Positions 4,912 to 43,421 of a stretch of 64,000 nt of DNA are shown here, piece by piece. The first letter of the stretch is position 1. Every line of letters starts with the position of its first letter. The notes below the pieces were generated by a model. It had not been told where the DNA came from and ran no database searches. It saw nothing but the letters and a program-made list of their open reading frames with translations. The position numbers and the translations under genes were made by a program. Location of the stretch: positions 5,122 to 69,121 of the forward strand of contig CALWIZ010000007.1 of the NCBI GenBank assembly GCA_944380885.1, in the 5' to 3' direction. This stretch comes from an uncultured Clostridia bacterium (lineage in GTDB: Bacteria > Bacillota > Clostridia > Oscillospirales > Acutalibacteraceae).

Positions 4912-5784
4912 ATGGCAACTGCAAAATTAGCTAAAAGAACCAAACAGCTGAATCGTTCGCTTGCAGGCAACCTAGGCGTTTATACGGTTCTCTTTATTCT
5001 GGCGGTTTTTATGGTGCTTCCGTTGGTGTATACTCTGGTATCATCAGTAAAGCCACTGGAAGAATACTGGGTTTTTCCGCCTAAATTTACAGTAGATCAT
5101 CCTACTATGAAAAATTATAAGGATTTATTTACCATGTTGACCGATTCTATGATTCCGTTTTCAAGGTATCTTTTCAATACCGCGTTTGTTTCAATCGTAG
5201 GTACTGCCGGTCATGTTATACTCTCTTCTATGTGTGCGTTTGGCCTTGCAAAGCACAGATTTCCCGGTTCAAAAATAATGTTTTCAATGGTGGTTCTGGC
5301 GCTTATGTTCAATACCACTGTTACCAGAATACCTAACTTTATTATAATGTCGAAGCTTAATATGCTTGATACATATGCCGCGCTGATTGTTCCGGCGTTC
5401 GGTTCCTCGCTCGGTCTTTACCTTATGAAGCAGTTTATGGATTCAATGGTAAACGACTCGGTGCTTGAATCCGCACGTATTGACGGTGCGGGTGAGTGGA
5501 GGGTGTACTGGAGAATGGTAATGCCGATGGTAAAGCCGGCATGGCTTACACTTATTATATTTTCGTTCCGTGACTTATGGAATATCGGCAGCACTACATA
5601 TATTCAGAGCGAACCGCTTAAAACCCTTAATTATGTTATGTCGCAGATTTCCGCGGGCGGCGTTGCGCGCGCAGGTGCAGCAGCCGCGGCAGGTGTAATT
5701 ATGATGATTGTACCGATAACGGTATTTATTATCACGCAGAGCAACGTTGTGGAAACAATGGGCTCCTCCGGCATGAAGGAGTAA
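4912..5784 (+). CDS. carbohydrate ABC transporter permease (CUT1, MalG/UgpE-like)
   Basis: Start chosen at ATG 4912, 9 nt after AAGGAG. EAA loop LESARIDGAGEWRVYWRMVMPMVKP. Multi-pass membrane protein. Confidence 0.9.
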   Translation: MATAKLAKRTKQLNRSLAGNLGVYTVLFILAVFMVLPLVYTLVSSVKPLEEYWVFPPKFTVDHPTMKNYKDLFTMLTDSMIPFSRYLFNTAFVSIVGTAGHVILSSMCAFGLAKHRFPGSKIMFSMVVLALMFNTTVTRIPNFIIMSKLNMLDTYAALIVPAFGSSLGLYLMKQFMDSMVNDSVLESARIDGAGEWRVYWRMVMPMVKPAWLTLIIFSFRDLWNIGSTTYIQSEPLKTLNYVMSQISAGGVARAGAAAAAGVIMMIVPITVFIITQSNVVETMGSSGMKE

Positions 5785-19680: not shown

Positions 19681-21606
19681 ATGAAAAGCGTTAAAAGATT
19701 TTCAGCATTATTGACATCAATTATAATGACATTTTCTCTGATTATAGTTTCAGCGTCCGACGCAGAAATAAAAATTATTAAAGAGGTTACTCCTGAGACT
19801 ATGGATTGGTCGGCGGAGGAAGTAGCATATATTGATTTTTCCGAAATTGACAGCATTTCCCTTGAGGACGGCGCTGTGGGACACGGAATAAAACTTTTAC
19901 CTAATAACGGCGCTACTTCATGGAAAGCGGCAAACCGGCTTTCGGAAGACGGATATCTGCTTTTCGGTAAAGAAGCAAATACTGACGGCGGCAATCCGGA
20001 AAAGCTGGATTTCGGCAATGTCTATTTTAATGTTGATGTACCGCTTGCGGAAAAGGCAAAAACCGCATATGCGTTAAAGGTGGATTATTACGGCGGCGGA
20101 ATCGGAGTTGACGCCGGTTCGTATATAACATTTTGCTACAATAATTCGGAAAAGGCGGAATATACCACCGGTCAGTATAAATACGGCTCTACCTATAACA
20201 GCGGTAAAGTTGAAAGTATGTATGTCCTGCTTTCAGACGCCAATCTTTCCGAAAACGTAGGGACTCCGAAGGGCGATATCCGTATGAATACATGGACCGG
20301 AGCCCAGCTTAAAATACGGCGTATTTCTATTGTCGAATATTCGCCTCTTGTAACGCCAGAGCTAAAAGAAGTATATAAGGGGCCCAAAAAGGAAATAGCC
20401 ACTATTGATTTTTCCGATTTTTCAGAGACAGATATAACAAACGGGAGCTTCGCCGGAAACGGACTCACATTGCTTACAACGCAGGATACGGGTGCGGCTA
20501 TGGCTTCCAATCTGATGGAGGACGGTTATCTTCTTCTCGGAAAACAGGCGCGGCAGACAGGCGCGGACAGCTATGCCAACGGCGCGATCTATTTAAAGCT
20601 GGATATTGCTCCCGCGGATAAGGGCAATACGGCATATGCCGTAAAAGTTGAGTATTACGGAGGAGGCATAGGTACAGATGCCGGCTCTTATATAGATTTG
20701 CGTTATAACAGCGCGACAAGCTCTGCTGCGAGCAAACGCAACACATACGGTGCTACTTATAACAGCGGAAATCTTGAAGCTATGTACTTCCTCCTCGATA
20801 ATGCCGATTTTTCCGAAACAATACAGAACAGCACCTGCGGCGCGGATTTCAGGCTTGAGACCTGGTGCGGAAACGGCACAACAACCGGCGCGCAGCTTAA
20901 AATCAAATCGGTTTCTGTTGTGGAATATGATCCGTTAAAAACTTCGGAAAACGCCGAAAAGCTTTTCAATGTATATTCTGAGGGCAGTGTTCCGACCGAA
21001 ACGGCCCTTATAAATGCGAATACAGGCGAATATACCGGAATGACTTATTCTTCGGCGGTGAATGTTTATAAGCTTATCGATTTGAATGACATTGAGCATT
21101 TTGTGGCTCTTCCCGCATATGACGCAAACGGTCTCGGCACATTCGGAGTTACCGTTTCTCCGGAGGATACGTATGTAAAGAATACCAAGCAGGCAGAAAT
21201 AACCGTATATTATTGGGATGTAGGCACAGGCAATTTCAATATTGAATATAATTCATCTGACGAGGGAGCATACAAGCGCACCGAGACAGTTGTCCTTGAG
21301 GATACCAAGGAGCTTAAATCGCACACATTTACATTGACTTCAGTTGCTTTTACCGGCGCTCAGACCGGAGGCTTTGATTTTAAACTGCTTACGCGTCAGA
21401 ACGATTTCTGTATTGAGAAAATAGTTTTGACAGCCGAGGTAAAATCGGGAGACGTTAACATGGACGGCGAGGTGGCGTCTGAAGATATCGCGGCTCTTGT
21501 CAAGCACCTTATGGGGTCTGAGGTTTACGAGAATACCGATGTTAACGGAGACAATGCTGTAAACATATTGGATCTGATAAGAATTAAAAAGCTCCTTGCT
21601 GAGTAA
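19681..21606 (+). CDS. secreted three-module putative glycan-binding protein with C-terminal type I dockerin
   Basis: Signal peptide, then two ~190-aa internally repeated modules (...DYYGGGIGVDAGSY...GAQLKIRRISIVEY / ...EYYGGGIGTDAGSY...GAQLKIKSVSVVEY) and a third beta-sandwich-like module. The dockerin duplicate Ca-binding loops are GDVNMDGEVASEDIAALVKHL...DVNGDNAVNILDLIRIKKLL. Confidence 0.8.
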   Translation: MKSVKRFSALLTSIIMTFSLIIVSASDAEIKIIKEVTPETMDWSAEEVAYIDFSEIDSISLEDGAVGHGIKLLPNNGATSWKAANRLSEDGYLLFGKEANTDGGNPEKLDFGNVYFNVDVPLAEKAKTAYALKVDYYGGGIGVDAGSYITFCYNNSEKAEYTTGQYKYGSTYNSGKVESMYVLLSDANLSENVGTPKGDIRMNTWTGAQLKIRRISIVEYSPLVTPELKEVYKGPKKEIATIDFSDFSETDITNGSFAGNGLTLLTTQDTGAAMASNLMEDGYLLLGKQARQTGADSYANGAIYLKLDIAPADKGNTAYAVKVEYYGGGIGTDAGSYIDLRYNSATSSAASKRNTYGATYNSGNLEAMYFLLDNADFSETIQNSTCGADFRLETWCGNGTTTGAQLKIKSVSVVEYDPLKTSENAEKLFNVYSEGSVPTETALINANTGEYTGMTYSSAVNVYKLIDLNDIEHFVALPAYDANGLGTFGVTVSPEDTYVKNTKQAEITVYYWDVGTGNFNIEYNSSDEGAYKRTETVVLEDTKELKSHTFTLTSVAFTGAQTGGFDFKLLTRQNDFCIEKIVLTAEVKSGDVNMDGEVASEDIAALVKHLMGSEVYENTDVNGDNAVNILDLIRIKKLLAE

Positions 21607-31156: not shown

Positions 31157-31164
31157 CATTTTGC

Positions 31165-31263
31165 AATTCAGGGAGCTTGATGAAACTCAGGCTGAGAGGG
31201 AGTCCGTCTTTTGACTATGGCTCCGACCTGCGACCTGATACGGATAATGCCGTCGTAGGGAAA
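31165..31263 (+). promoter_or_regulatory. TPP (thiamine pyrophosphate) riboswitch aptamer
   Basis: Conserved cores ...GGGAGC...CTGAGAGGG... and ...ACCTGATACGGATAATGCCGTCGTAGGGA. It is followed by its own terminator and then thiT. Confidence 0.85.
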
Positions 31264-31279
31264 TACACAAAATGTATTG

Positions 31280-31370: not shown

Positions 31371-31955
31371 ATGGAAATGAAAAACAAACCTGTTTACAAA
31401 CTTGCTTTAAGCGCTATATTTGTGGCGCTCGCTACCGGACTCAGCTTTATTAAGATATGGGAAATGCCGCTCGGCGGCTCAATAACGCTTCTCAGCATGC
31501 TTCCTATCGTTATGATATCTATTATGCTGGGACTTAAATGGGGAATAGGCAGCGCGTTCGTTTATTCGCTTATCCAGCTTATGTTCGGTATATCTGAGGT
31601 GCTTAGCTGGGGTCTTACGCCTGTAATGCTTGTCGGCACAATGCTGCTCGATTACATACTTCCCTTTACGGTTCTCGGCGTGGCGGGAGCGTTTGTAAAA
31701 AAAGGCTACGCGGGAATCTGCGCCGGCGTTGTTCTTGCACTCGGACTGAGATTTTTAAGCCATTTTCTGTCAGGTGTTATTATTTTCCGGAATCTTGAGC
31801 AGTTTAAACTTTTCGGAACACTTTTTGCCAACCGTCCGTATCTTTATTCCTTCTGCTACAACGGATTTTATATGATTCCGGAAATAATCATCACCACAAT
31901 AGCTGCTGTAATTCTTTTCCGTATGTCTTCGGTCAAGAAGCTGATGGCGCAGTAA
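31371..31955 (+). CDS. thiT: ECF-type thiamine transporter S component ThiT
   Basis: 194 aa, 6 TM. N-terminus KLALSAIFVALATGLSFIKIWEMPLGGSITLLSMLPI. RBS AAGGAGAG. Sits downstream of the TPP riboswitch. Confidence 0.8.
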   Translation: MEMKNKPVYKLALSAIFVALATGLSFIKIWEMPLGGSITLLSMLPIVMISIMLGLKWGIGSAFVYSLIQLMFGISEVLSWGLTPVMLVGTMLLDYILPFTVLGVAGAFVKKGYAGICAGVVLALGLRFLSHFLSGVIIFRNLEQFKLFGTLFANRPYLYSFCYNGFYMIPEIIITTIAAVILFRMSSVKKLMAQ

Positions 31956-33473: not shown

Positions 33474-33502
33474 TTGACATAATAAAAAAGCGGTGTTATA
33501 CT
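33474..33502 (+). promoter_or_regulatory. sigma-A promoter (TTGACA-17-TATACT) for T-box leader 1
   Basis: TTGACA at 33474-33479 and TATACT at 33497-33502. Confidence 0.65.
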
Positions 33503-33508
33503 ATTTGA

Positions 33509-33783
33509 AAATGATAAAGGCATTGACGAAGACGGTCCGGAATGACTGCTTTAAGAGAGCCGGTGGTTGGTGTGAACCGGCAGTACGTATTCCAGAGTGA
33601 CCCATCGCTTCCGAGCCGGAGCACTGAATTCGCAAGACAGTAGGTTCTCCCGTGATTGCTGCGTAAAGGCATAGGGATTGTTGGATCCCAAGAGGTGGCG
33701 GCTTTCATGCCGCAATTTGAGTGGTACCGCGGATGTATTTTCACACCCGTCTCAAGGATTTCTTGAGACGGGTGTTTTTATTT
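33509..33783 (+). promoter_or_regulatory. T-box riboswitch leader 1 (inferred specifier AUC, Ile)
   Basis: GA/K-turn TTGACGAAGA paired with CTTCCGAGCC. AG bulge AAGAGAG. Distal loop GGTTGGTGTGAA. T-box sequence AATTTGAGTGGTACCGCGG at 33713-33731. Terminator CACCCGTCTCAAG-5 nt-CTTGAGACGGGTG plus TTTTT at 33744-33779. Candidate specifier ATC at 33604-33606, followed by G and then the CTTC strand of the basal helix. Confidence 0.8.
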
Positions 33784-33803
33784 CACAAAGGAGGCTTTTA
33801 AAA

Positions 33804-36074
33804 ATGGCAACAGTATCAACCGACAGTCAGCTTAAAGAGGTTGCGGTGAGAATCCGCGAAATGCGTGAGATATGCGGCATTTCCGAGGCCGATATGGCGC
33901 AGAAGACGGAGGTAAGCGTAGAAGAATACAGACTTTACGAGGAAGGAAAAAAGGATTTTCCTTTCACCTTTATACATAAATGCTCGCTGGCGTTCGGCAT
34001 AGGCATTACCGACCTGCTTGAAGGACAGAGCGCTCATCTTTCTTCCTACACTGTTACCCGCAAGGGTCATGGACAGCAGACCGCCAAAGAGGACGGAATA
34101 GAAATACAGAACTTAGCCCCGCTTTTCAGAAAAAAGATAGCCGAGCCGTACTGGGTAAGATATGAGTATCATTCCGAGCTTCAGGATAAGCCGATACATC
34201 TTACAAATCATTCCGGTCAGGAGTTCGACTTTGTAATGAGCGGCAGGCTCAAGGTTCAGATAGGTGAAAATGTTGAGTATCTGAGCGAGGGAGACAGTAT
34301 CTATTACAACTCTTCCACGCCTCACGGAATGATAGCCGTTGACGGCAGGGACTGCCTGTTTGTTGCTGTGGTGCTCCCCGGTGAGGACGTAAAGGAGGAC
34401 ATAATCCGCGGAACGATAGTTTCGGCTCATTCGGGAACAAAGGAATATGTTTCCTCAAAGTTCATCGATACGGTTGAGGACGAGAACGGCGTGCTTCAGA
34501 AGATAGACTTCAAAAATGAGGATAAGTTCAATTTTGCTTTTGACATTGTCGATGCGATAGCCAAAAAGGAACCCGACAAGCTGGCGATGCTCCATATAGA
34601 TAAAAACAAGACTGAGCGCAGATTTACCTTTAACGATATGAAGCGTGCCTCCAACCAGTGTGCCAACTATTTCAAGTCGCTTGGCATAAAGAAGGGCGAC
34701 AGGGTAATGCTGGTACTTAAAAGGCACTATCAGTTCTGGTACGCAATACTGGCGCTTCACAAGCTCGGAGCGATAGCGATACCCGCTACCAACCTTCTGC
34801 AGCAGCACGACTTTGAGTACCGCTTCAACGCGGCGGACGTAAGCGCCATAGTCTGCACCGCCGACGGGGACGCAGCGCATCAGGTGGATCTGGCGGAGCC
34901 TTCAAGCCCGACGCTTAAGACCAAGATACTCGTAGGCGGCAAGCGTGACGGCTGGCACGACTTTGACGAGGAGTTTCCGCTGTTCAGCGCGCATTTCTAC
35001 CGCACCGAGGACACCGCCTGCGGCGACGACCTTATGCTTATGTTCTTTACATCAGGAACCACGGGATACCCGAAGATAGCCGCCCACAGCTACAAATACG
35101 CGCTCGGACACTACATAACCGCCAAATACTGGCACGGTGTTGACGAAAACGGATTGCACTTTACAATATCCGAGACCGGCTGGGGCAAGGCGCTCTGGGG
35201 CAAGCTGTACGGTCAGTGGCTCTGCGAGGGCGCGGTATTCACCTACGACTTTGACCGCTTTGACGCGTCGGATATACTCCCTATGTTTGCGAAATACAAC
35301 ATCACAACCTTCTGCGCTCCGCCGACAATGCTGCGCATGATGATAAAGGAGGACATATCAAAGTACGACCTTTCGTCGATAAAGCATATGACCACAGCAG
35401 GCGAGGCGCTTAACCCGGAGGTTTACAGGCAGTTTGAAAAGGCGACCGGCCTTCAGATAATGGAGGGCTTCGGTCAGACCGAGCTGACGCTCGTTATTGC
35501 AAACCTTATGGGTAATCCCCACAAACTCGGATCGATGGGTATGCCTACCCCGCTTTACGATGTCGATATACTTGATCCTGACGGAAATCCGGTACCTGAC
35601 GGCGAGACCGGCGAAATAGTTGTAAAGACCTCAGAGAAAGTTCCCTGCGGCCTATTCAAGGGCTATTACAAGAACGAGGAAAAGACAAAAGAGGTATGGC
35701 ACGACGGTTATTATCACACCGGAGATACCGCGTGGAGAGACGAGGACGGCTTTTACTGGTATGTCGGCCGTGTGGACGATGTTATTAAGTCATCGGGCTA
35801 CCGCATAGGGCCGTTCGAGATAGAGAGCGTAATAATGGAGCTTCCTTATGTGCTTGAGTGCGGAGTTTCCGCTGCGCCCGACGAGATACGCGGTCAGGTG
35901 GTAAAGGCGAGTATCGTGCTTGTAAAGGGCACCGAGGGTACGGAAGAGCTTAAAAAGGAAATCCAGAACTATGTAAAGCAGCACACCGCGCCTTACAAGT
36001 ATCCGAGGATAGTAGAGTTCAAGACTGAGCTGCCTAAGACCATAAGCGGAAAGATCCAGCGTAATAAGCTGTAA
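33804..36074 (+). CDS. tri-domain fusion: XRE-type HTH + cupin + AMP-forming (medium/short-chain) acyl-CoA synthetase, paralog 1
   Basis: Start at ATG 33804 after AAAGGAGG; the track start 33678 lies inside the T-box leader. HTH: LKEVAVRIREMREICGISEADMAQKTEVSVEEYRLYEEG. Cupin: HSGQEFDFVMSGRLKVQIGE...GDSIYYNSSTPHGM. Adenylation motifs MFFTSGTTGYPK, YHTGDTAW, SGYRIGPFEIES, and the C-terminal PKTISGKIQR. Confidence 0.85.
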   Translation: MATVSTDSQLKEVAVRIREMREICGISEADMAQKTEVSVEEYRLYEEGKKDFPFTFIHKCSLAFGIGITDLLEGQSAHLSSYTVTRKGHGQQTAKEDGIEIQNLAPLFRKKIAEPYWVRYEYHSELQDKPIHLTNHSGQEFDFVMSGRLKVQIGENVEYLSEGDSIYYNSSTPHGMIAVDGRDCLFVAVVLPGEDVKEDIIRGTIVSAHSGTKEYVSSKFIDTVEDENGVLQKIDFKNEDKFNFAFDIVDAIAKKEPDKLAMLHIDKNKTERRFTFNDMKRASNQCANYFKSLGIKKGDRVMLVLKRHYQFWYAILALHKLGAIAIPATNLLQQHDFEYRFNAADVSAIVCTADGDAAHQVDLAEPSSPTLKTKILVGGKRDGWHDFDEEFPLFSAHFYRTEDTACGDDLMLMFFTSGTTGYPKIAAHSYKYALGHYITAKYWHGVDENGLHFTISETGWGKALWGKLYGQWLCEGAVFTYDFDRFDASDILPMFAKYNITTFCAPPTMLRMMIKEDISKYDLSSIKHMTTAGEALNPEVYRQFEKATGLQIMEGFGQTELTLVIANLMGNPHKLGSMGMPTPLYDVDILDPDGNPVPDGETGEIVVKTSEKVPCGLFKGYYKNEEKTKEVWHDGYYHTGDTAWRDEDGFYWYVGRVDDVIKSSGYRIGPFEIESVIMELPYVLECGVSAAPDEIRGQVVKASIVLVKGTEGTEELKKEIQNYVKQHTAPYKYPRIVEFKTELPKTISGKIQRNKL

Positions 36075-36129: not shown

Positions 36130-36418
36130 CATCAAAATTCAAAGGCGCTGACGAAGAGGATACGGCTGATGCTTTTAAAGAGAGATAACGGTTGGTGTAA
36201 GTTATCAGAGAAAGGCCTGTATTTGTAGCTTCCGAGCCGGGAGGAAGAAAGTTTTTAACGAGTAGAACCTCCCCGTGACTGCTGCGTAAAGGCATAGGAA
36301 TTGTTTGATTCCAAGAGTGGCGGCTTTTCTGCCGCAATTTGAGTGGTACCGCGGGCTACCGATATATATGTATTTCGGCGCTCGTCTCAAAGTCATAACT
36401 TTGGGACGAGCGTTTTTT
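36130..36418 (+). promoter_or_regulatory. T-box riboswitch leader 2 (inferred specifier GUA, Val)
   Basis: Same architecture as leader 1. CTGACGAAGAGG paired with CTTCCGAGCC. AAAGAGAG. GGTTGGTGTAA. T-box sequence AATTTGAGTGGTACCGCGG at 36336-36354. Terminator CGCTCGTCTCAAAG-6 nt-CTTTGGGACGAGCG plus TTTTTT at 36379-36418. Candidate specifier GTA at 36225-36227, followed by G and CTTC. Confidence 0.8.
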
Positions 36419-36452: not shown

Positions 36453-38744
36453 ATGAAACAGATAACAGGGCTTGATTACAAAATCAAGGAAATGGCGGCG
36501 CGCATAAGGGAGTTGCGCGAGATTGAGGGACTTTCGGTTGCCGATATGGCACAAAAGACCGCCGTAAGCGAGGAGGAGTACACCGCCTGTGAAAACGGCG
36601 AGAGCGATTTAAACTTCGCTTTTATATACCGCTGCGCGCTTGCGTTCAATGTAGATGTCACCGATATTATAGAGGGTCAAAGCCCGACCCTGCGCTCCTA
36701 TACCGTAACGAGAAAGGGCGAGGGTCAGCGCATTGAAAAGGCGCACGGAATGACCTATTATAACCTTGCCGCCGCCTTCCAGAACAGGATAGCCGAGCCG
36801 CTTTACGTTAAAAGCGCTTACAGTGAGGAGGCGCAGCACCGTGATATTGAGCTTACCACTCATGCCGGTCAGGAATGTGACCTTATAATAGAGGGAAAGC
36901 TCAAGGTTCAGGTGGGCGAGCATAAGGAAATTTTAGGTCCGGGGGACAGTATTTATTACGACAGTTCAACTCCGCACGGAATGATAGCCGTTGACGGCAA
37001 GGACTGTATATTCTACGCGATAGTGCTTAACCCGACCGGTGAGCCTATCCCCGAGCTTGAGGACGAAAAGCCGGTCGCCCAGAATGTGGCGCCCCACACG
37101 CCGGACACCAAGAACAGAATATACAGAAAATACACCGAGGTCACAAAGGACGAAAACGGAACACCGGTTTCTATAAAGTTCAAGAATACCGAGCATTTCA
37201 ACTTCGCTTTTGACCTTGTGGACGCTCTGGCAGATAAGGACCCTGACAAGCTGGCGATGCTGCATATCTCAAAGGATAAGACCGAGCGCAGGCTGACCTT
37301 CAAGGATATGAAAAAGGCTTCCAATCAGTGCGCCAACTATTTCAAGTCCTTAGGCATAAGAAAAGGCGACCGCGTAATGCTGGTGCTTAAAAGGCATTAC
37401 CAGTTCTGGTACGCGATACTGGGGCTTCACAAGCTGGGAGCGATAGCGATACCCGCCACAAACCAGCTTCAGGAGCACGATTTTGAGTACCGCTTCAAAA
37501 CCGCCGGCGTTTCGGCGATAATCTGCACAGCCGACGGTGATACAGCTCATCAGGCGGATATAGCGGCGGCAAACTGTCCTGAGCTTAAGCATAAGCTGAT
37601 AGTAAACGGCACGCGTGAGGGCTGGCGCCCGTTTGACGAGGAGTACACCCTTTACAGCACCCATTACAACCGTCCGGACGACGCCCCCGGAGGGGACGAC
37701 CTTATGCTGATGTTCTTTACGTCGGGAACAAGCGGATACCCGAAAATCGCCGCTCACAACTATAAATATGCCCTCGGACATTTCCACACGGCGAAATACT
37801 GGCACAACGTCGATCCTGACGGACTGCACTTTACCATTTCGGATACCGGCTGGGCAAAGGCGATGTGGGGCAAGCTGTACGGTCAGTGGCTCTGCGAGGC
37901 GGCTACTTTCGTTTACGATTTCGACCGGTTTGACGCGGCGGATATTCTTCCGATGTTCGCGAAATACAATATAACCACCTTCTGCGCGCCGCCTACGATG
38001 CTCAGAATGATGATAAAGCAGGATATCTCAAAGTACGATTTCTCGTCTGTTAAGCATATGACCACAGCGGGCGAGGCGCTGAACCCCGAGGTTTACAGGC
38101 AGTTTGAAAAGGCCACGGGTCTTCAGATACTGGAGGGCTTCGGACAGAGCGAAAGCACCATGATAATCGGCAATATGACCGGCGCACCGCATAAGATAGG
38201 CTCAATGGGCAAGCCGGCGCCGATTTACGATGTGGATATAGTGGATTCCGACGGCAACCCGGTACCTCCCGGAGAGACCGGTGAAATAGTCATAAACATT
38301 AAAAACGGTTATCCATGCGGTCTTGCCGTAGGTTATTACGGCGACGAAGAAAAGACAAAGGAAACATGGCGCGACGGATATTACCACACCGGCGACACCG
38401 CGTGGAAGGACGAGGACGGCTTTTACTGGTACGTTGGCCGCGTGGACGATGTTATCAAGTCTTCGGGCTACCGCATAGGGCCGTTCGAGATAGAAAGCGT
38501 TATAATGGAGCTTCCTTATGTGCTTGAGTGCGGCGTTTCGGCGGCTCCCGACCCGGTGCGCGGTCAGGTGGTAAAGGCGAGCATAGTTCTTGTTGACGGA
38601 ACAGAGGGCACTGAGGAGCTTAAAAAGGAAATCCAGAATTACGTAAAGCAGCATACCGCGCCTTACAAGTATCCGCGTATAGTAGTATTCAGAGACAGTC
38701 TTCCTAAAACTACCAGCGGAAAAATTCAGCGTAATAAGTTATAA
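36453..38744 (+). CDS. tri-domain fusion: XRE-type HTH + cupin + AMP-forming acyl-CoA synthetase, paralog 2
   Basis: 763 aa, collinear with paralog 1. The C-terminal halves are nearly identical in places (ILPMFAKYNITTFCAPPTMLRMMIK, YHTGDTAW.DEDGFYWYVGRVDDVIKSSGYRIGPFEIESVIMELPYVLECGVSAAPD). The inter-domain linker and mid-region are more divergent. Confidence 0.85.
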   Translation: MKQITGLDYKIKEMAARIRELREIEGLSVADMAQKTAVSEEEYTACENGESDLNFAFIYRCALAFNVDVTDIIEGQSPTLRSYTVTRKGEGQRIEKAHGMTYYNLAAAFQNRIAEPLYVKSAYSEEAQHRDIELTTHAGQECDLIIEGKLKVQVGEHKEILGPGDSIYYDSSTPHGMIAVDGKDCIFYAIVLNPTGEPIPELEDEKPVAQNVAPHTPDTKNRIYRKYTEVTKDENGTPVSIKFKNTEHFNFAFDLVDALADKDPDKLAMLHISKDKTERRLTFKDMKKASNQCANYFKSLGIRKGDRVMLVLKRHYQFWYAILGLHKLGAIAIPATNQLQEHDFEYRFKTAGVSAIICTADGDTAHQADIAAANCPELKHKLIVNGTREGWRPFDEEYTLYSTHYNRPDDAPGGDDLMLMFFTSGTSGYPKIAAHNYKYALGHFHTAKYWHNVDPDGLHFTISDTGWAKAMWGKLYGQWLCEAATFVYDFDRFDAADILPMFAKYNITTFCAPPTMLRMMIKQDISKYDFSSVKHMTTAGEALNPEVYRQFEKATGLQILEGFGQSESTMIIGNMTGAPHKIGSMGKPAPIYDVDIVDSDGNPVPPGETGEIVINIKNGYPCGLAVGYYGDEEKTKETWRDGYYHTGDTAWKDEDGFYWYVGRVDDVIKSSGYRIGPFEIESVIMELPYVLECGVSAAPDPVRGQVVKASIVLVDGTEGTEELKKEIQNYVKQHTAPYKYPRIVVFRDSLPKTTSGKIQRNKL

Positions 38745-38776: not shown

Positions 38777-39439
38777 ATGGATTACAAACGACTGACCCTC
38801 ATCTGCGGCCATTACGGCAGCGGAAAGACAAACGTCGCCGTAAATCTTGCGTTTGACCTTAAAAGGCAGTATAATAAAACATCGATAGCGGACCTTGATA
38901 TAGTTAATCCCTACTTCCGCACAAAGGACAGCATGGAAGAGCTTGAAAGGGCGGGAATAGAGCTTATCTGCTCGGATTACGCCGGAACGAATGTGGATAT
39001 TCCGGCTCTGCCTCAGCAGATGTATTCGATAACCGACGACCGCTCAAAAAAGGTGATACTCGATATAGGGGGAGACGACCGCGGCGCTCTGGCGCTTGGG
39101 AGGCTTGCTCCGGCGATACTTGCCGAAAACGATTACGAGATGCTTATGGTGATAAACCGGTTCCGTCCGCTCACAAGGGACGCGCGTTCCACGGTAGAGG
39201 TAATGCGTGAAATCGAGTACGCGGGGGGCATACCCTTTACGGGGCTTGTAAACAACTCAAATCTGGGCGAGGAGACGACAGCGGAGGATATTCTTTCTTC
39301 GGTTACTTATGCCAATGAGGTATCACGGCTTTCCTCACTGCCGGTAATTTGCACTACCGTACACGACACGGTTTATGCCGCTGTCGCGGGTAAAATAAAT
39401 AATTTATTCCCGTTAAAGCTCCAGCCGAAAATAGGCTGA
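38777..39439 (+). CDS. small SIMIBI/MinD-ParA-like P-loop NTPase of unknown role
   Basis: N-terminal deviant Walker A ICGHYGSGKTNVAVNLA, then DLDIVNPYF and ILDIGGDD. 220 aa. No CxC metal motif of CooC type. RBS GGGAGGAAG. Confidence 0.6.
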   Translation: MDYKRLTLICGHYGSGKTNVAVNLAFDLKRQYNKTSIADLDIVNPYFRTKDSMEELERAGIELICSDYAGTNVDIPALPQQMYSITDDRSKKVILDIGGDDRGALALGRLAPAILAENDYEMLMVINRFRPLTRDARSTVEVMREIEYAGGIPFTGLVNNSNLGEETTAEDILSSVTYANEVSRLSSLPVICTTVHDTVYAAVAGKINNLFPLKLQPKIG

Positions 39440-39465: not shown

Positions 39466-39678
39466 TTGAAAATGGCTAAGCTGACATTCAAAACCGATAA
39501 CTGCAAGGGCTGCGGACTGTGCGTAGACGCCTGTCCGAAGCATGTTCTGCAGTTGGCGGCGGACAAGATCAACAAAAAAGGACATCATCCGGTCGAGGCG
39601 GTAAAGGAAGACGAGTGCATCGCCTGCGCTTTCTGCGCCACAATGTGCCCCGACTGCATAATAAAAATAGAGAGGTAA
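39466..39678 (+). CDS. 2-oxoacid:ferredoxin oxidoreductase delta subunit (2x[4Fe-4S] ferredoxin)
   Basis: 70 aa with CKGCGLCVDACP and CIACAFCATMCP. Confidence 0.85.
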   Translation: MKMAKLTFKTDNCKGCGLCVDACPKHVLQLAADKINKKGHHPVEAVKEDECIACAFCATMCPDCIIKIER

Positions 39679-39687
39679 GTGAAAAAT

Positions 39688-40755
39688 ATGTCAGAAAAGG
39701 TTTTGATGAAGGGCAACGAGGCGCTGGCGGAAGCCGCCATAATCGCCGGCTGCCGTCATTATTTCGGTTATCCCATAACCCCGCAGACCGAGGTTGCCGC
39801 CTATATGGCAAAGAGAATGCCGAAAATCGGCGGAACATTTTTACAGGCTGAAAGCGAGATTGCCGCAATAAATATGGTTTACGGCGTATCCTCGACCGGC
39901 CACAGGGTCATGACATCGTCTTCAAGCCCAGGAATTTCGCTTAAGGGCGAGGGACTTTCCTATCTTGCCGGTTCAGATCTTCCGGCGCTTGTAATCAACG
40001 TACAGCGCGGCGGCCCGGGACTCGGCGGAATACAGCCGTCGCAGTCGGACTATTTTCAGGCTACAAAGGGCGGCGCACACGGCGACTTCCATATGATAGT
40101 TCTGGCGCCCGCTTCGGTTCAGGAAATGGCTGACCTTACCGTAAAGGGCTTTGAGCTTGCCGATAAATACCGTATGACCTCTATGGTTCTGGCGGACGGT
40201 ACTATGGGTCAGATGATGGAACCTGTTTCGCTTGAATACGATATAAAGCCTGCCCCCGAAAAGCCGTGGGCGACTACGGGAACAAAAATGCAGAGAGAGC
40301 ATAACATTATAAATTCGCTTTCACTTGTTCCCGAAGAGCTTGAGAGGTTAAATATAGAGCGCTACAAGAGATATGACGAGGTCGAGAAAAATGAGGTCAT
40401 GTACGAGGAGTATATGATGGACGACGCCGAGATCTGCATAGCGGCGTTCGGTATTGCCGCCCGTGTCTCAAAGAACGCGATTACCGAGGCGAGAAGACAG
40501 GGCATAAAGGCCGGTATGATAAGACCGATAACCCTCTGGCCGTTCCCGAAGGCGCCGTTTAAAAAAGCGGCTAAGAGCGTAAAGCAGTTTATTTCTGTTG
40601 AGCTTTCAATGGGACAGATGATAGAGGACGTTCGTCTGGCGACCGAATGCAGAGTGCCCGTAACTCTCTGCAACCGCGTGGGCGGTATGATACCGTCGCC
40701 TGAGATGGTACTTGAGGCTATTAAGGAAGCCGCGAAAAACGGAGGTGCAAGATAA
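39688..40755 (+). CDS. vorB: 2-oxoacid:ferredoxin oxidoreductase alpha subunit (VorB-like)
   Basis: Start taken at ATG 39688 (MSEKVLMKGNEALAEAAIIAGC...); GTG 39679 is an alternative. The ~355-aa size and N-terminal KGNEA..EAAI.AG pattern fit the KorA/VorB/PorA family. Confidence 0.8.
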   Translation: MSEKVLMKGNEALAEAAIIAGCRHYFGYPITPQTEVAAYMAKRMPKIGGTFLQAESEIAAINMVYGVSSTGHRVMTSSSSPGISLKGEGLSYLAGSDLPALVINVQRGGPGLGGIQPSQSDYFQATKGGAHGDFHMIVLAPASVQEMADLTVKGFELADKYRMTSMVLADGTMGQMMEPVSLEYDIKPAPEKPWATTGTKMQREHNIINSLSLVPEELERLNIERYKRYDEVEKNEVMYEEYMMDDAEICIAAFGIAARVSKNAITEARRQGIKAGMIRPITLWPFPKAPFKKAAKSVKQFISVELSMGQMIEDVRLATECRVPVTLCNRVGGMIPSPEMVLEAIKEAAKNGGAR

Positions 40756-41510
40756 TGGTAGTATTTGAAAAACCACACGCGCTGACAGATGTGCCGATGC
40801 ACTACTGCCCGGGCTGTACGCACGGTATAGTTCACCGCCTTGTCGCCGAGGTTATAGACGAGTTAGGGATAGAGGGAAAGACGGTTGGAATAGCGCCGGT
40901 CGGCTGTTCGGTTATGGCGTACAATTACTTTAACTGCGATATGATAGAGGCGGCTCACGGCCGCGCTCCGGCAGTCGCCACAGGCGTTAAGCGTGCCGAG
41001 CCGGACAATATCGTGTTTACATATCAGGGCGACGGAGATCTTGCGTCAATCGGTACCGCCGAAACGGTACATTCCGCCGCGAGAAACGAGAATATAACCG
41101 TTATATTCATAAACAACGCGATTTACGGTATGACCGGCGGACAGATGGCTCCTACCTCTCTGCCCGGTCAGGTGACCCAGACCTCTCCCTACGGCAGGGA
41201 CGTAAAGCTCTGCGGCTACCCGGTAAAGGTCTGCGAAATGCTTTCACAGCTTGACGGACCGGAATACCTTGAGCGTGTTGCGGTAAATAACGTAAAGAAT
41301 ATAAAGAACGCTAAAAAGGCAATTAAAAAAGCGTTCCAGAATCAGATAGACGGCAAGGGATTTTCGCTTGTCGAGGTAATCTCAAGCTGCCCGACAAACT
41401 GGGGTCTTACTCCGCAGAACGCGCTCAAATGGATAGACGAAAAAATGATACCATATTACCCGCTGGGCGTTTATAAAGACCGCTCTGCCGCCAAGGAGGA
41501 AACGAAATGA
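40755..41510 (+). CDS. 2-oxoacid:ferredoxin oxidoreductase beta subunit (TPP-binding)
   Basis: YCPGCTHGIVHR, GDGDLASIG, NNAIYGMTGGQ. The start overlaps the alpha-subunit stop. Confidence 0.85.
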   Translation: MVVFEKPHALTDVPMHYCPGCTHGIVHRLVAEVIDELGIEGKTVGIAPVGCSVMAYNYFNCDMIEAAHGRAPAVATGVKRAEPDNIVFTYQGDGDLASIGTAETVHSAARNENITVIFINNAIYGMTGGQMAPTSLPGQVTQTSPYGRDVKLCGYPVKVCEMLSQLDGPEYLERVAVNNVKNIKNAKKAIKKAFQNQIDGKGFSLVEVISSCPTNWGLTPQNALKWIDEKMIPYYPLGVYKDRSAAKEETK

Positions 41511-42052
41511 GTACAACACAGTTTTTGTTTGCCGGATTCGGCGGTCAGGGTATACTCTTCGCCGGAAAATTCGCGGCGTATAAGGGACTTATCGGGGAAA
41601 AGCAGGTGAGCTGGCTGCCGTCATACGGACCCGAAATGCGCGGTGGCACAGCGAGCTGCAGCGTTATTATAAGCGATGAGCCGGTAGGCTCTCCTATCGT
41701 TTCAAAGCCTGATGTGCTTATTGCCATGAACCTGCCCTCGCTTGACAGGTACGAAAGCGCTGTTGCCGTGGGAGGAACCATTTTTGTTGATTCCACTCTT
41801 ATCGACCGCAAGGTTGAGCGTGACGATGTCGCGGTTTACTATGTCCCGGCGACCCGTCTTGCAAGCGATAACGGTATGCCGACACTTGCCAATATGATAC
41901 TTATGGGAAATATTCTTAAGGTAATGAATGATTTTGACGAGGAAAGCGTTACCGAAGCACTTAAAAAGGTTGTTTCCGCGAAGCATGCGGATATGCTTGA
42001 TGTAAACCTTAAGGCGCTTAAAATAGGCGCTGAATATAAAGAGGAAGTGTAA
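41507..42052 (+). CDS. 2-oxoacid:ferredoxin oxidoreductase gamma subunit
   Basis: 181 aa, [14 protein letters not shown]...[10 protein letters not shown]. 4-nt overlap with the beta-subunit gene. Confidence 0.85.
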
Positions 42053-42055
42053 GTC

Positions 42056-43120
42056 ATGGAAATCAAGATTGTAAAAACCGATTCTCCCAAGGAAAAACCC
42101 GACAGCAGCACATTAGGCTTCGGAAAAATTTTCACCGACCATATGTTTATTATGGATTATTCGCGTGAGAAAGGTTGGCACGACGCGAGGATAGTACCGT
42201 TTGGCAATATTTCTCTGCACCCGGCGTCAACCGTACTGCATTACGGCTCCGAAATTTTTGAGGGTCTTAAAGCGTACCGCCGCGCGGACGGGAAGGTTCA
42301 GCTTTTCAGACCGATTGAAAATATCCGCAGAATGAATAATTCCGCTGAAAGACTCTGCCTGCCGCAGATAGACGAAAAGGACGCTATGCAGATACTTGAG
42401 ACTTTTGTTTCGCTTGAGCAGGACTGGACGCCGTCAGCTGAGGGAACTTCCCTTTACCTGCGCCCATTTATGTTCGGAAACGATGAGTCGCTGGGCGTTC
42501 ACGCGGTGCACAACGCGACTTATATGATTATCGCGTCTCCTGTCGGAAGCTATTATAAAGAGGGCATAAACCCCGTAAAGATTATGATAGAGGACGAGGA
42601 CGTGCGCGCGGTAAGAGGAGGCACAGGCTACGCCAAGTGCGGCGGAAACTATGCTGCCAGCAACCGCGCCGGCGAGAGAGCCGAGCAGAAGGGTTATTCT
42701 CAGGTGCTCTGGCTTGACGGCGTTGAGCGCAAGTATATAGAGGAAGTCGGCGCTATGAACGTTATGTTCAAAATCGGCGGCGAGATTGTAACCCCGAAGC
42801 TCACGGGTTCAATTCTTCCGGGAATCACCAGAAAGTCCTGCATTGAGGTGCTTAAAGACGAGGGCTATACCGTAAACGAGAGACTTTTAAGCGTTGACGA
42901 GCTTGGAGAGGCGCTTAAGAACGGAACGCTTGAGGAGGCATGGGGCTGCGGTACCGCGGCGGTCGTCTCCCCGATAGGCGAGCTTTGCTACAAGGACGTT
43001 AAATACACTATCAACAACGGCGAGATCGGCAAGGTCACACAGCATCTTTATGATACTCTCACCGGAATACAGTGGGGCAAAATCGAGGATAAGTACGGCT
43101 GGACATATCCGATTAAGTAA
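42056..43120 (+). CDS. ilvE: branched-chain amino acid aminotransferase
   Basis: 354 aa fold-type IV pattern: FTDHMF, LHYGSEIFEGLKAYR, LYLRPFMFG, GTGYAKCGGNYAAS, GITRKS. Confidence 0.9.
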   Translation: MEIKIVKTDSPKEKPDSSTLGFGKIFTDHMFIMDYSREKGWHDARIVPFGNISLHPASTVLHYGSEIFEGLKAYRRADGKVQLFRPIENIRRMNNSAERLCLPQIDEKDAMQILETFVSLEQDWTPSAEGTSLYLRPFMFGNDESLGVHAVHNATYMIIASPVGSYYKEGINPVKIMIEDEDVRAVRGGTGYAKCGGNYAASNRAGERAEQKGYSQVLWLDGVERKYIEEVGAMNVMFKIGGEIVTPKLTGSILPGITRKSCIEVLKDEGYTVNERLLSVDELGEALKNGTLEEAWGCGTAAVVSPIGELCYKDVKYTINNGEIGKVTQHLYDTLTGIQWGKIEDKYGWTYPIK

Positions 43121-43127
43121 CTAAAAA

Positions 43128-43163
43128 AAGCGTATCCGTTTTTTTGCGGATACGCTTTTATTT
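43128..43163 (+). terminator. rho-independent terminator after ilvE
   Basis: AAGCGTATCCG-loop TTTTTTTG-CGGATACGCTT followed by a T-rich tail. The same GCGTATCCG/CGGATACGC stem recurs after htpG. Confidence 0.85.
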
Positions 43164-43180
43164 GTCGAGAAACCTTGAAC

Positions 43181-43421
43181 GGAAAGCAAATTGTATAAAC
43201 GTAATTTCAGTCAAACCTTTTTGGAAGGTTTGCGTATTCTATCTAAAGGCGGAGCCTTTAGCCTCTTTCCGCAGAAAGCGGAACTTTTTTGTCTTATAAA
43301 ACTCAGGAAAGGGTGAAAAAACAGTCCGGTGGACTGTTCCTGTGGGAACCCCTCCTCGTTGGTTTCCTTTTAACTGACTATTTATTTGTGCAAGTTTTTA
43401 ATTGGAGATGACTTTCTTGAC
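43181..43421. repeat. multi-hairpin intergenic repeat, full-length copy A (MITE-like)
   Basis: Aligns with 61467-61706 over its whole length and with 51354-51455 over the left half. Hairpins: CAAACCTTTTTGGAAGGTTTG (43212-43232), TAAAGGCGGAGCCTTTA (43244-43260), TTCCGC-AGAAA-GCGGAA plus T6 (43267-43290), A-run plus ACAGTCC-GGT-GGACTGT (43315-43337). Confidence 0.8.

Follow-up and report, generated by a model that had tools for sequence, protein, structure and literature searches.

A T-box leader with an isoleucine specifier upstream of an acyl-CoA synthetase gene: a probable gate on isoleucine synthesis from 2-methylbutyrate in uncultured Oscillospirales

T-boxes switch their genes on under starvation for the amino acid to which they respond. 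Why, then, should a T-box leader whose specifier position reads isoleucine (Ile) stand in front of a gene for an acyl-CoA synthetase? The question is raised by a stretch of 64,000 nucleotides from an uncultured Clostridia bacterium (GTDB lineage Bacteria; Bacillota; Clostridia; Oscillospirales; Acutalibacteraceae), positions 5,122 to 69,121 of the forward strand of contig CALWIZ010000007.1 in GenBank assembly GCA_944380885.1, which we call the window and whose own numbering is used throughout. An earlier note on this DNA, made without database searches, had pointed to such a leader at 33509-33783 and had proposed that the enzyme encoded downstream activates 2-methylbutyrate for isoleucine synthesis. 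Here, we describe this leader (leader 1), the synthetase gene that follows it (acs1), and the operon to which both belong. The overall explanation that we consider likely is that a T-box responding to tRNA-Ile(GAU) gates a route from 2-methylbutyrate to isoleucine; in proposing it, we infer the binding of the tRNA, the substrates of the enzymes and the anabolic direction of the pathway.

The RNA itself is readily recognised. The covariance model (CM) of the Rfam T-box family, RF00230, matches positions 33514-33757 of the + strand over its full length (model positions 1-219), with a score of 95.2 bits against a gathering score of 93 and an E-value of 1.3e-19; two families reach their curated thresholds in the whole window, the T-box and a thiamine pyrophosphate (TPP) riboswitch at 31159-31278. 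A consensus scan predicts a promoter, P1, at 33474-33502 (+), of the form TTGACA-17-TATACT with an extended -10 TG and 11 of 12 consensus matches. Leader 1 extends from its 5' flank at 33514 to the U-tract of a terminator at 33783, and homologous leaders precede the orthologous gene at 75 loci.

Stem I (33520-33616) has a GC/GC base and is supported by the CM alignment, the minimum-free-energy fold and covariation. It carries the K-turn (UGA 33524-33526 opposite GA 33613-33614 in the CM alignment), a basal helix (GAAG 33528-33531 with CUUC 33608-33611), a helix above the codon (GGUC 33534-33537 with GACC 33599-33602), the AG bulge AGAGA (33554-33558) and the distal loop GGUUGGUGUGA (33565-33575). 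The specifier AUC, assigned from the codon columns of the Rfam CM, occupies 33604-33606 and is followed by G33607. Continuing on the + strand, the CM alignment places stem II, with its GAA...AGUA motif, at 33619-33649, stem IIA/B at 33651-33663 and stem III at 33697-33713; between the latter two lies an extra hairpin, GGGAU/AUCCC (33674-33689), which adds 16 nt not present in the model and is retained with compensatory changes (GGAAU/AUUCC) in a second leader of the same operon (leader 2, see below).

The regulatory half of the leader follows. The T-box sequence AATTTGAGTGGTACCGCGG (33714-33732), with UGGU at 33722-33725, forms the 5' side of the antiterminator (33714-33756, CM alignment), in which UUUGAG 33716-33721 pairs with CUCAAG 33751-33756 and GCGG 33729-33732 pairs with CCGU 33747-33750. 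Between these two helices is a 7-nt bulge, UGGUACC (33722-33728), whose UGGU is the predicted partner of the 3' end, ACCA, of the tRNA. The UGGU predicts a discriminator base A73 in the cognate tRNA, and A73 is typical of bacterial tRNA-Ile. A terminator scan identifies an intrinsic terminator at 33743-33783, consisting of a 15-bp stem (33743-33775) and a U-tract, and the segment 33747-33756 is common to the 3' arm of the antiterminator and the 5' arm of the terminator. The antiterminator (33716-33757) folds with -9.5 kcal/mol and the segment that includes the terminator (33716-33782) with -27 kcal/mol (z = -4.9), the terminator being much the stronger of the two. The T-box sequence AAUUUGAGUGGUACCGCGG (33714-33732) is part of a UGGN-bulge antiterminator that competes with an intrinsic terminator, as is characteristic of RF00230. 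The earlier note had stated that all canonical T-box elements were visible, and the Rfam CM together with the promoter and terminator scans located every one of them. By all of these features, 33509-33783 is a complete T-box leader on the + strand, predicted to attenuate transcription.

How widely is this leader conserved? Relatives of the acs1 protein were sought in one genome per GTDB species, which yielded at least 505 gene copies, and 80 loci were compared. These loci come from gut and rumen metagenome-assembled genomes (MAGs) labelled Acutalibacteraceae, Oscillospiraceae, Ruminococcaceae or Clostridia, one of them (L001) being from the window's own species; in two loci from Lachnospiraceae MAGs (L072 and L077) no T-box match was obtained, and a further, distant AMP-binding paralog lies upstream. 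Searching with a profile built from the leaders of the window places a leader before the gene in nearly all of the 80 loci. When ten related loci were rescanned with the same Rfam library, 16 leaders of the Ile and valine (Val) types were scored, at 70.6-105.2 bits and E-values from 1e-13 to 1e-22, and GUGGUACCGCG is identical in all ten leaders for which alignments were shown, which come from seven of the ten scanned loci. Among 73 distinct orthologs, the K-turn UGA/GA, the bulge AGAGA and GGUUGGUG are invariant or nearly so, as expected for an RF00230 stem I, in which the AG bulge and distal loop serve to dock on the elbow of the tRNA. Moreover, the leader loci are only about 75% identical in sequence, yet the terminator and antiterminator are intact, with covariation, across the 75 loci.

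The earlier note had folded stem I by hand as GAAG-AC-GGTC...GACC-C-ATC-G-CTTC. This is indeed the minimum-free-energy structure of 33518-33618, and the GGUC/GACC helix covaries. Base pairs were counted for an explicit six-helix structure of stem I on the 73 distinct orthologs, using slid partners and 500 shuffles as controls. Paired cells amount to 89.1%, compared with 26-45% for the slid partners, both sides change in 17 of 24 pairs, and none of the 500 shuffles reaches any of the observed measures. Within the helix 33534-33537/33599-33602, one pair is UA in 38 orthologs, CG in 15, UG in 8 and AU in 5, and the next is CG in 24, UA in 16 and AU in 7. The K-turn, AG bulge, ATC triplet and basal helix never vary among the orthologous leaders, while the other helices covary. 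Folded on its own, the stem I sequence reaches an energy that does not improve on that of shuffled sequences (z = -0.02), so the support for stem I rests on conservation and covariation and not on thermodynamics. From the alignment of the 73 stem I sequences, RNAalifold predicted no more than the base and the distal helix (10 pairs, -3.9 kcal/mol), a result that is uninformative on the specifier loop. In this lineage, that loop is a compact 2 x 5 nt internal loop, with AC (33532-33533) on the 5' side and Y-AUC-N (33603-33607) on the 3' side.

Which codon does this loop present? The Ile triplet ATC had been placed by the earlier note at 33604-33606, just 5' of the basal helix, and the Rfam CM, alignment to which the note had named as a test of its reading, agrees, aligning AUC with its three codon columns, G33607 with the next position and CUUC with the basal helix. 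The posterior probability at the specifier is about 0.5 in the window, where the CM requires a 5-nt insertion; the model also puts AUC in the codon columns in all six orthologous Ile-type leaders shown, with high posterior in L054 and L076, and GUA in the codon columns of all four second leaders shown. Parsed from the K-turn and the basal helix, the triplet is ATC in 75 of 75 orthologous leaders, with variable flanks, which is the conservation that the earlier note had named as a check on its reading. The base 5' of ATC is C in 48 leaders, T in 23 and A in 4; the base 3' of it is A in 42, C in 24 and G in 9; and the triplet before it is CCC in 46, CCT in 18, CCA in 3, CTT in 3, ACC in 2, and GCA, ACT or ATT in the others. 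Across the alignment of the 73 distinct stem I sequences, columns average 69% identity, and the A, T and C columns of the specifier are invariant. A further statement of the note, that ATC is followed by a purine, holds in the window (G33607) but not across the orthologs.

The position of the triplet also conforms to known rules. According to TBDB, the specifier comprises nucleotides 2-4 from the 3' end of the specifier bulge, with a 3' C preferred (the 'C-rule'; PMC7778990), and the AUC of leader 1 occupies exactly these nucleotides and obeys the rule. As in the T-box family generally, it lies on the 3' side of the loop, one nucleotide before CUUC, and belongs to an amino-acid class that matches the operon, which encodes a 2-oxoisovalerate:ferredoxin oxidoreductase (VOR) and the aminotransferase IlvE. 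The homologous leader 2 provides a further constraint: read in the +1 frame, its specifier is UAG or UAA, and because these are stop codons the register is fixed for the pair of leaders. Sequence comparison thus confirms Ile as the predicted reading of the leader 1 specifier.

The gene behind leader 1, acs1 (33804-36074, +), has a ribosome-binding site, AAAGGAGG, at 33787-33794, with the ATG at 33804 nine bases 3' of it. The earlier note had called its product an acyl-CoA synthetase. The AMP-binding domains are present, but this is not a plain synthetase: Pfam, PDB and NCBIfam searches describe a 756-aa fusion of a helix-turn-helix (HTH) and cupin region to an AMP-forming acyl-CoA synthetase. 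The Pfam domains are HTH_3/HTH_19, Cupin_2, AMP-binding (E 3e-67) and AMP-binding_C (E 1e-19), and the XRE-type HTH and the cupin domain together make up residues ~16-190 at the N-terminus. Over residues 237-754 the best PDB match is MacsMa, the medium-chain acyl-CoA synthetase of Methanosarcina acetivorans (3ETC, E 2.8e-186). MacsMa forms acyl-adenylates from C3 to C8 acids, completes CoA-ligation best with 2-methylbutyrate, and has 2-methylbutyrate as its preferred substrate (PMC10455477). The large gut protein family to which acs1 belongs is currently annotated just 'acyl-CoA synthetase'.

A paralog, acs2 (36453-38744, +), encodes a 763-aa protein that is 71% identical to acs1 and has the same Pfam architecture. 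The best NCBIfam model for both is MbcS (NF047394), at 452 and 437 bits against an equivalog cut-off of 850, scores that point to relatives of MbcS and not to the same protein. Proteins encoded behind 75 ATC leaders and 50 GTA leaders fall into two clean clades, the nearest neighbour carrying the same label in 125 of 125 cases and a two-cluster analysis by the unweighted pair group method with arithmetic mean splitting the ATC-type and GTA-type proteins exactly. Because clades and specifiers match throughout, the duplication of acs must be old, with each paralog keeping its own specifier. The possibility that the two leaders of a genome evolve in concert was rejected, the Ile-versus-Val identity within genomes (0.74 outside stem I) being about the same as that between genomes (0.71-0.76).

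Of the sixteen residues that separate the Ile and Val clades, 13 fall in the HTH-cupin domain (positions 10-126), a hint that this domain has a ligand or partner specific to each paralog. A PDB sequence search with this N-terminal part returned no relative at E <= 0.01; the roughly 200 residues concerned are encoded at 33804-34400 in acs1 and at 36453-37050 in acs2. In the catalytic domain three residues are clade-specific: the Ile clade has G461, L464 and L563, where the Val clade has A, M and M and MacsMa has G, V and V. The smaller residues of acs1 would suit the larger acid needed for Ile, a weak indication that supposes them to line the substrate pocket.

Leader 2 separates acs1 from acs2. 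It has its own promoter, P2 (36095-36123, +, promoter scan), at an aligned position equivalent to that of P1, and extends over 36139-36392 (+) with a terminator at 36377-36414 (+, terminator scan). Its Rfam score, 85.9 bits (E 9e-18), is under the gathering score of 93, and a default Rfam scan accordingly misses it. The specifier, at 36225-36227, is GUA (Val), followed by G, and second leaders read GTA in all 58 orthologs that could be parsed. A tRNA-Val(UAC) with A73-CCA, encoded in the related locus L030, fits leader 2. No terminator was found between the acs1 stop codon and leader 2, so that a transcript begun at P1 has to clear the Val gate as well before the genes for VOR and IlvE are reached.

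These genes follow acs2 on the + strand. The first gene after acs2 (38777-39439) encodes a 220-aa P-loop protein of the CbiA/ParA type, with a weak Pfam match to CbiA and no NCBIfam match, which in all related loci that reach far enough occupies the place between the synthetase genes and vorD and may help to mature or activate the Fe-S/TPP enzyme. Then come VOR delta (39466-39678), a 70-aa ferredoxin with two CxxCxxCxxxCP motifs for 2x[4Fe-4S]; VOR alpha (39679-40755), which scores 539 bits with NCBIfam VorB (cut-off 399); VOR beta (40755-41510), with a TPP site; and VOR gamma (41507-42052). For the beta, gamma and delta subunits, the matches to 2-oxoacid:ferredoxin oxidoreductase models score under the respective cut-offs, and Pfam finds POR_N, PFOR_II, TPP_enzyme_C and POR across 39466-42052. 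With alpha passing the VorB model, the four genes are predicted to encode a four-subunit VOR. The last gene, ilvE (42056-43120), encodes a branched-chain amino acid aminotransferase of 354 aa (PRK13357, 485 bits, cut-off 307; TIGR01123, 400 bits, cut-off 250). A bidirectional terminator at 43126-43159, with a 13-bp palindromic stem and T runs on both strands, closes the operon; a 'trpB motif' Rfam match on the - strand (43118-43214, 30 bits, E 0.98) coincides with it and was set aside as a likely chance hit.

The gene order acs1-acs2-P-loop-vorDABC-ilvE is kept in every related locus of sufficient length, with some informative variation in the leaders. L007, L044 and L062 have a single acs1-type gene with an Ile T-box directly before P-loop-vor-ilvE, and in L059, L064, L075 and L079 acs1 and acs2 are adjacent, the second leader is missing, and the Ile T-box is the only leader of the operon. 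In these seven loci, the Ile T-box alone gates the whole pathway. The identity of the T-box, the register and conservation of its specifier, and the content and conservation of the operon can all be read directly from such sequence comparisons.

A third, weaker T-box leader occurs in 18 of the related loci (19 leaders), 17 of the leaders reading CUC (leucine, Leu) and two a different or ambiguous triplet; examples are L013:18387-18567, L057:18278-18491 and L029:9825-10055. Most of these third leaders are located after ilvE, before a leuA-like gene of the isopropylmalate or citramalate synthase type. The window has no counterpart, the bidirectional terminator 3' of ilvE being followed by an NAD(P)HX repair gene. 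The neighbourhood thus forms a cluster of genes for the supply of branched-chain amino acids.

How would these parts work together? Transcription would start near 33509, and stem I of the nascent leader would present AUC (33604-33606) to the anticodon of tRNA-Ile(GAU). If that tRNA were uncharged, its ACCA end would pair with UGGU (33722-33725) and stabilise the antiterminator, so that polymerase would pass the terminator (33743-33783) and transcribe acs1. The product of acs1 would most likely convert 2-methylbutyrate to 2-methylbutyryl-CoA, VOR would carry out the reductive carboxylation of this thioester to 2-oxo-3-methylvalerate with reduced ferredoxin as donor, and IlvE would transaminate the 2-oxoacid to isoleucine. 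In the same way, the Val T-box (GUA) would gate acs2, with isobutyrate as its putative substrate, along with the shared P-loop protein, VOR and ilvE, leading to valine. The earlier proposal that acs1 activates 2-methylbutyrate for Ile synthesis is strengthened, although not proven, by the operon context, because a Val T-box controls the paralog, a VorB-type VOR and ilvE are in the operon, and MacsMa is the closest solved homolog; it remains the most likely function.

A broader reading joins these pieces, and we put it forward tentatively, judging it somewhat less probable than an even chance. Here acs1 would be a 2-methylbutyrate-CoA ligase serving Ile and acs2 an isobutyrate-CoA ligase serving Val, the specifiers acting as built-in labels of a reductive-carboxylation route, and this would be the first gene-level identification of that route, in gut and rumen Oscillospirales. 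Three corollaries share its tentative standing: that the bacteria depend on cross-fed branched fatty acids for Ile and Val, that the fused HTH-cupin could provide a second, ligand-specific layer of control such as end-product sensing, and that the specifier loop would be a structural variant of T-box decoding that dispenses with the S-turn.

Several observations weigh against the proposal of an Ile-responsive gate on isoleucine synthesis. On the RNA side, leader 1 clears the Rfam gathering score by only ~2 bits, and 13 of the 16 scored related leaders are under it, at 70-93 bits with E <= 1e-13. The usual AGUA/GAA S-turn is missing from the specifier loop, where the covarying Watson-Crick helix GGUC/GACC is found instead, and the base after the codon, G in the window, is C rather than the usual purine in 24 of 75 orthologs. 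These last two are the only atypical features of leader 1 as an RNA; an S-turn and a purine after the codon are typical of the T-box family and do not define it, and membership stands. Indeed, judged by every defining feature that a sequence can test, leader 1 belongs to the family. As for its partner, the window contains no tRNA genes and the 40 related loci searched contain no tRNA-Ile, so that the anticodon GAU and A73 are predictions for this lineage. On the protein side, the acs1 score is far under the MbcS equivalog cut-off and its substrate is assigned by no curated model. In the window, moreover, VOR and ilvE lie behind the Val gate, so that Ile starvation alone would induce acs1 and not obviously the rest, a puzzling design that could make sense if leader 2 is leaky or if other copies of VOR and IlvE exist. 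Finally, the mechanism is a prediction from the genome sequence of an uncultured MAG.

Could the specifier, or the direction of the operon, have been misread? The atypical loop, with its missing S-turn, its 5-nt CM insertion and its posterior of ~0.5 in the window, invites other choices of triplet: UCN (serine) one base to the right, which is always a serine codon (UCA, UCC or UCG), YAU (histidine or tyrosine) one base to the left, or the upstream CCC (proline), CCC, CCT or CCA standing before ATC in 67 of the 75 leaders. Yet each of the three bases A, U and C is the same in all 75 leaders, and the neighbours on both sides vary. The -1 frame would specify histidine, tyrosine or asparagine depending on the species; the +1 frame would require close relatives to use different tRNA-Ser isoacceptors, gives no reason for the invariant A, and turns the specifier of leader 2 into a stop codon; and the upstream triplet is CTT, ACC, GCA, ACT or ATT in eight leaders, with C33601-C33602 inside the covarying GGUC/GACC helix. 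Moreover, the CM places AUC with high posterior in L054 and L076, and the regulated genes are all branched-chain amino acid genes. It is equally difficult to see how the operon could be catabolic, taking Ile and Val by way of 2-oxoacids and acyl-CoA to fatty acids, with a T-box that is incidental or decayed. VOR enzymes can work in both directions, of which the oxidative one is the better known, and leader 1 scores just 2 bits above its threshold, both of which would suit such an operon. However, induction at amino-acid scarcity is the opposite of a catabolic need, and AMP-forming synthetases spend ATP toward the thioester and are not used for acid release; for these two reasons the pathway is read as synthesis rather than degradation. 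A decayed leader would also hardly be conserved with covariation and with intact terminator and antiterminator across 75 loci that are ~75% identical. Another register of the specifier and a catabolic operon are both effectively excluded by these data.

Accepting an Ile switch on a biosynthetic operon, what else might acs1 supply? Isoleucine is the normal source of the 2-methylbutyryl-CoA primer for anteiso branched-chain fatty acids, and acs1 might mainly provide that primer when isoleucine is scarce, a role that is compatible with isoleucine synthesis and that we regard as unlikely to be the principal one. In favour of this role, MbcS, to which both acs1 and acs2 are best matched in NCBIfam, contributes to the synthesis of branched-chain fatty acids from acids supplied from outside (PMC10026030 and PMC11167679), and acs1 is the sole gene strictly behind the Ile gate in the window. 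Against it, acs1 invariably shares an operon with the genes for VOR and IlvE, enzymes that lead to the amino acid; in the seven loci described above, the Ile T-box controls acs, VOR and ilvE as one unit; and no fatty-acid synthesis genes were found near the operon. A different starting acid can be envisaged as well. The route from propionate through 2-oxobutyrate to isoleucine is known biochemically in some anaerobes, and 2-oxoacid:ferredoxin oxidoreductases are often promiscuous, so that acs1 might activate propionate, with reductive carboxylation of propionyl-CoA to 2-oxobutyrate feeding the ordinary ilv pathway. An Ile specifier would fit this scheme equally well, and the C3-to-C8 range of MacsMa adenylation includes propionate, but CoA-ligation by MacsMa is best with 2-methylbutyrate (PMC10455477). 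In addition, the synthetase is coupled directly to IlvE in an operon without ilvB, ilvC or ilvD, the existence of a Val paralog better suits a matched pair of acids, isobutyrate and 2-methylbutyrate, and the residues that distinguish acs1 (G, L, L) from acs2 (A, M, M) are the smaller ones, weakly suggesting a larger acid in acs1. Propionate as the physiological substrate of acs1 seems to us very improbable, and 2-methylbutyrate remains the preferred one.

As an RNA, leader 1 closely resembles characterised members of RF00230 such as those of Bacillus subtilis tyrS, ileS and the ilv-leu operon. It has their stem I with K-turn, specifier, AG bulge and distal loop, followed by stem II with GAA/AGUA, stem IIA/B, stem III, a 14-nt T-box sequence whose bulge is UGGN, and an antiterminator and a terminator that exclude each other. 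It departs from the family consensus in its compact 2 x 5 nt loop, in the covarying helix that replaces the S-turn, in a base after the codon that is not always a purine, and in the extra hairpin between stem IIA/B and stem III. The more striking difference is in the target: instead of an aminoacyl-tRNA synthetase, an ilv/leu gene or a transporter, leader 1 controls an acyl-CoA synthetase at the head of a fatty-acid-to-amino-acid route. The presence of more than one T-box on a transcription unit has precedents, for example the tandem T-boxes in the leader of B. subtilis thrZ. Unlike thrZ, however, the two T-boxes here have different specificities and a whole gene between them, forming successive gates inside an operon.

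The nearest enzymes are related in part only. The catalytic part of acs1 is like MacsMa, its closest solved homolog, whereas MacsMa is archaeal and without the HTH-cupin N-terminal domain; T-box control or a VOR/IlvE operon for MacsMa is unmentioned in PMC10455477, and no search was aimed at either. MbcS of Staphylococcus aureus, the best-scoring curated family for acs1 and acs2, activates branched short-chain acids from the medium (PMC10026030); unlike acs1, it feeds lipid synthesis, lacks the HTH-cupin region and is not described as T-box regulated.

The pathway, in contrast to its regulation, has a long history. It has been known since the 1960s that isobutyrate, 2-methylbutyrate and isovalerate are required by, or at least benefit, fibre-degrading bacteria of the rumen and gut, feed additives have been built on this fact, and such bacteria carboxylate the three acids to valine, isoleucine and leucine. 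The labelling studies of Allison and co-workers and of Whitman and co-workers reportedly traced the three conversions to reductive carboxylation in rumen bacteria and methanogens. The activation of the acid, the ferredoxin-dependent 2-oxoacid synthase and the transaminase of the classical route are all encoded in the window's operon, and, like the classical hosts, the carriers of this operon are gut and rumen bacteria, in this case Oscillospirales. The classical work is biochemical and, as far as our search reached, has not been connected with these genes or with control by a riboswitch. A dedicated isovalerate/Leu synthetase is not seen here, and about 18 related loci carry the third T-box instead. 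The use of 2-methylbutyrate for isoleucine is cited in PMC10658910.

Has the connection been made before? In the literature that we searched, the carboxylation of branched acids was not tied to specific genes in these Firmicutes, and in full texts no connection was found between T-boxes and acyl-CoA synthetases, VOR or branched fatty acids; the main comparative T-box study was outside the coverage of this search, and an earlier description is possible. The in silico survey of T-box regulons by Wels et al. (2008) makes no mention of CoA enzymes or such targets. We therefore claim novelty with moderate confidence and only for the class of target gene, since TBDB may already list these leaders without comment.

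Two other features of the window deserve a brief mention. The TPP riboswitch at 31159-31278 (60.1 bits, above threshold) precedes a ThiT/YuaJ-type thiamine transporter gene (31371-31955), an ordinary pairing. A 641-aa protein with a C-terminal type I dockerin is encoded at 19681-21606, among sugar-binding and glycoside-phosphorylase genes; it suggests a cellulosome-bearing, fibre-degrading host, of the type classically reported to need branched-chain fatty acids.

What does the leader tell us about these bacteria? A T-box sequence itself reports the amino acid that its operon serves. With one paralog under Ile control and the other under Val control, both before VOR and IlvE, the leaders provide a direct and testable assignment of genes, substrates and direction. 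The pattern is kept in at least 75 related loci, and the species set of GTDB contains at least 505 copies of related genes. The finding extends the known range of T-boxes, both by a new class of target gene and by a specifier loop of unusual build. It would also sharpen the annotation of a very abundant gut family now called simply 'acyl-CoA synthetase', and would let dependence on branched fatty acids be predicted from genomes.

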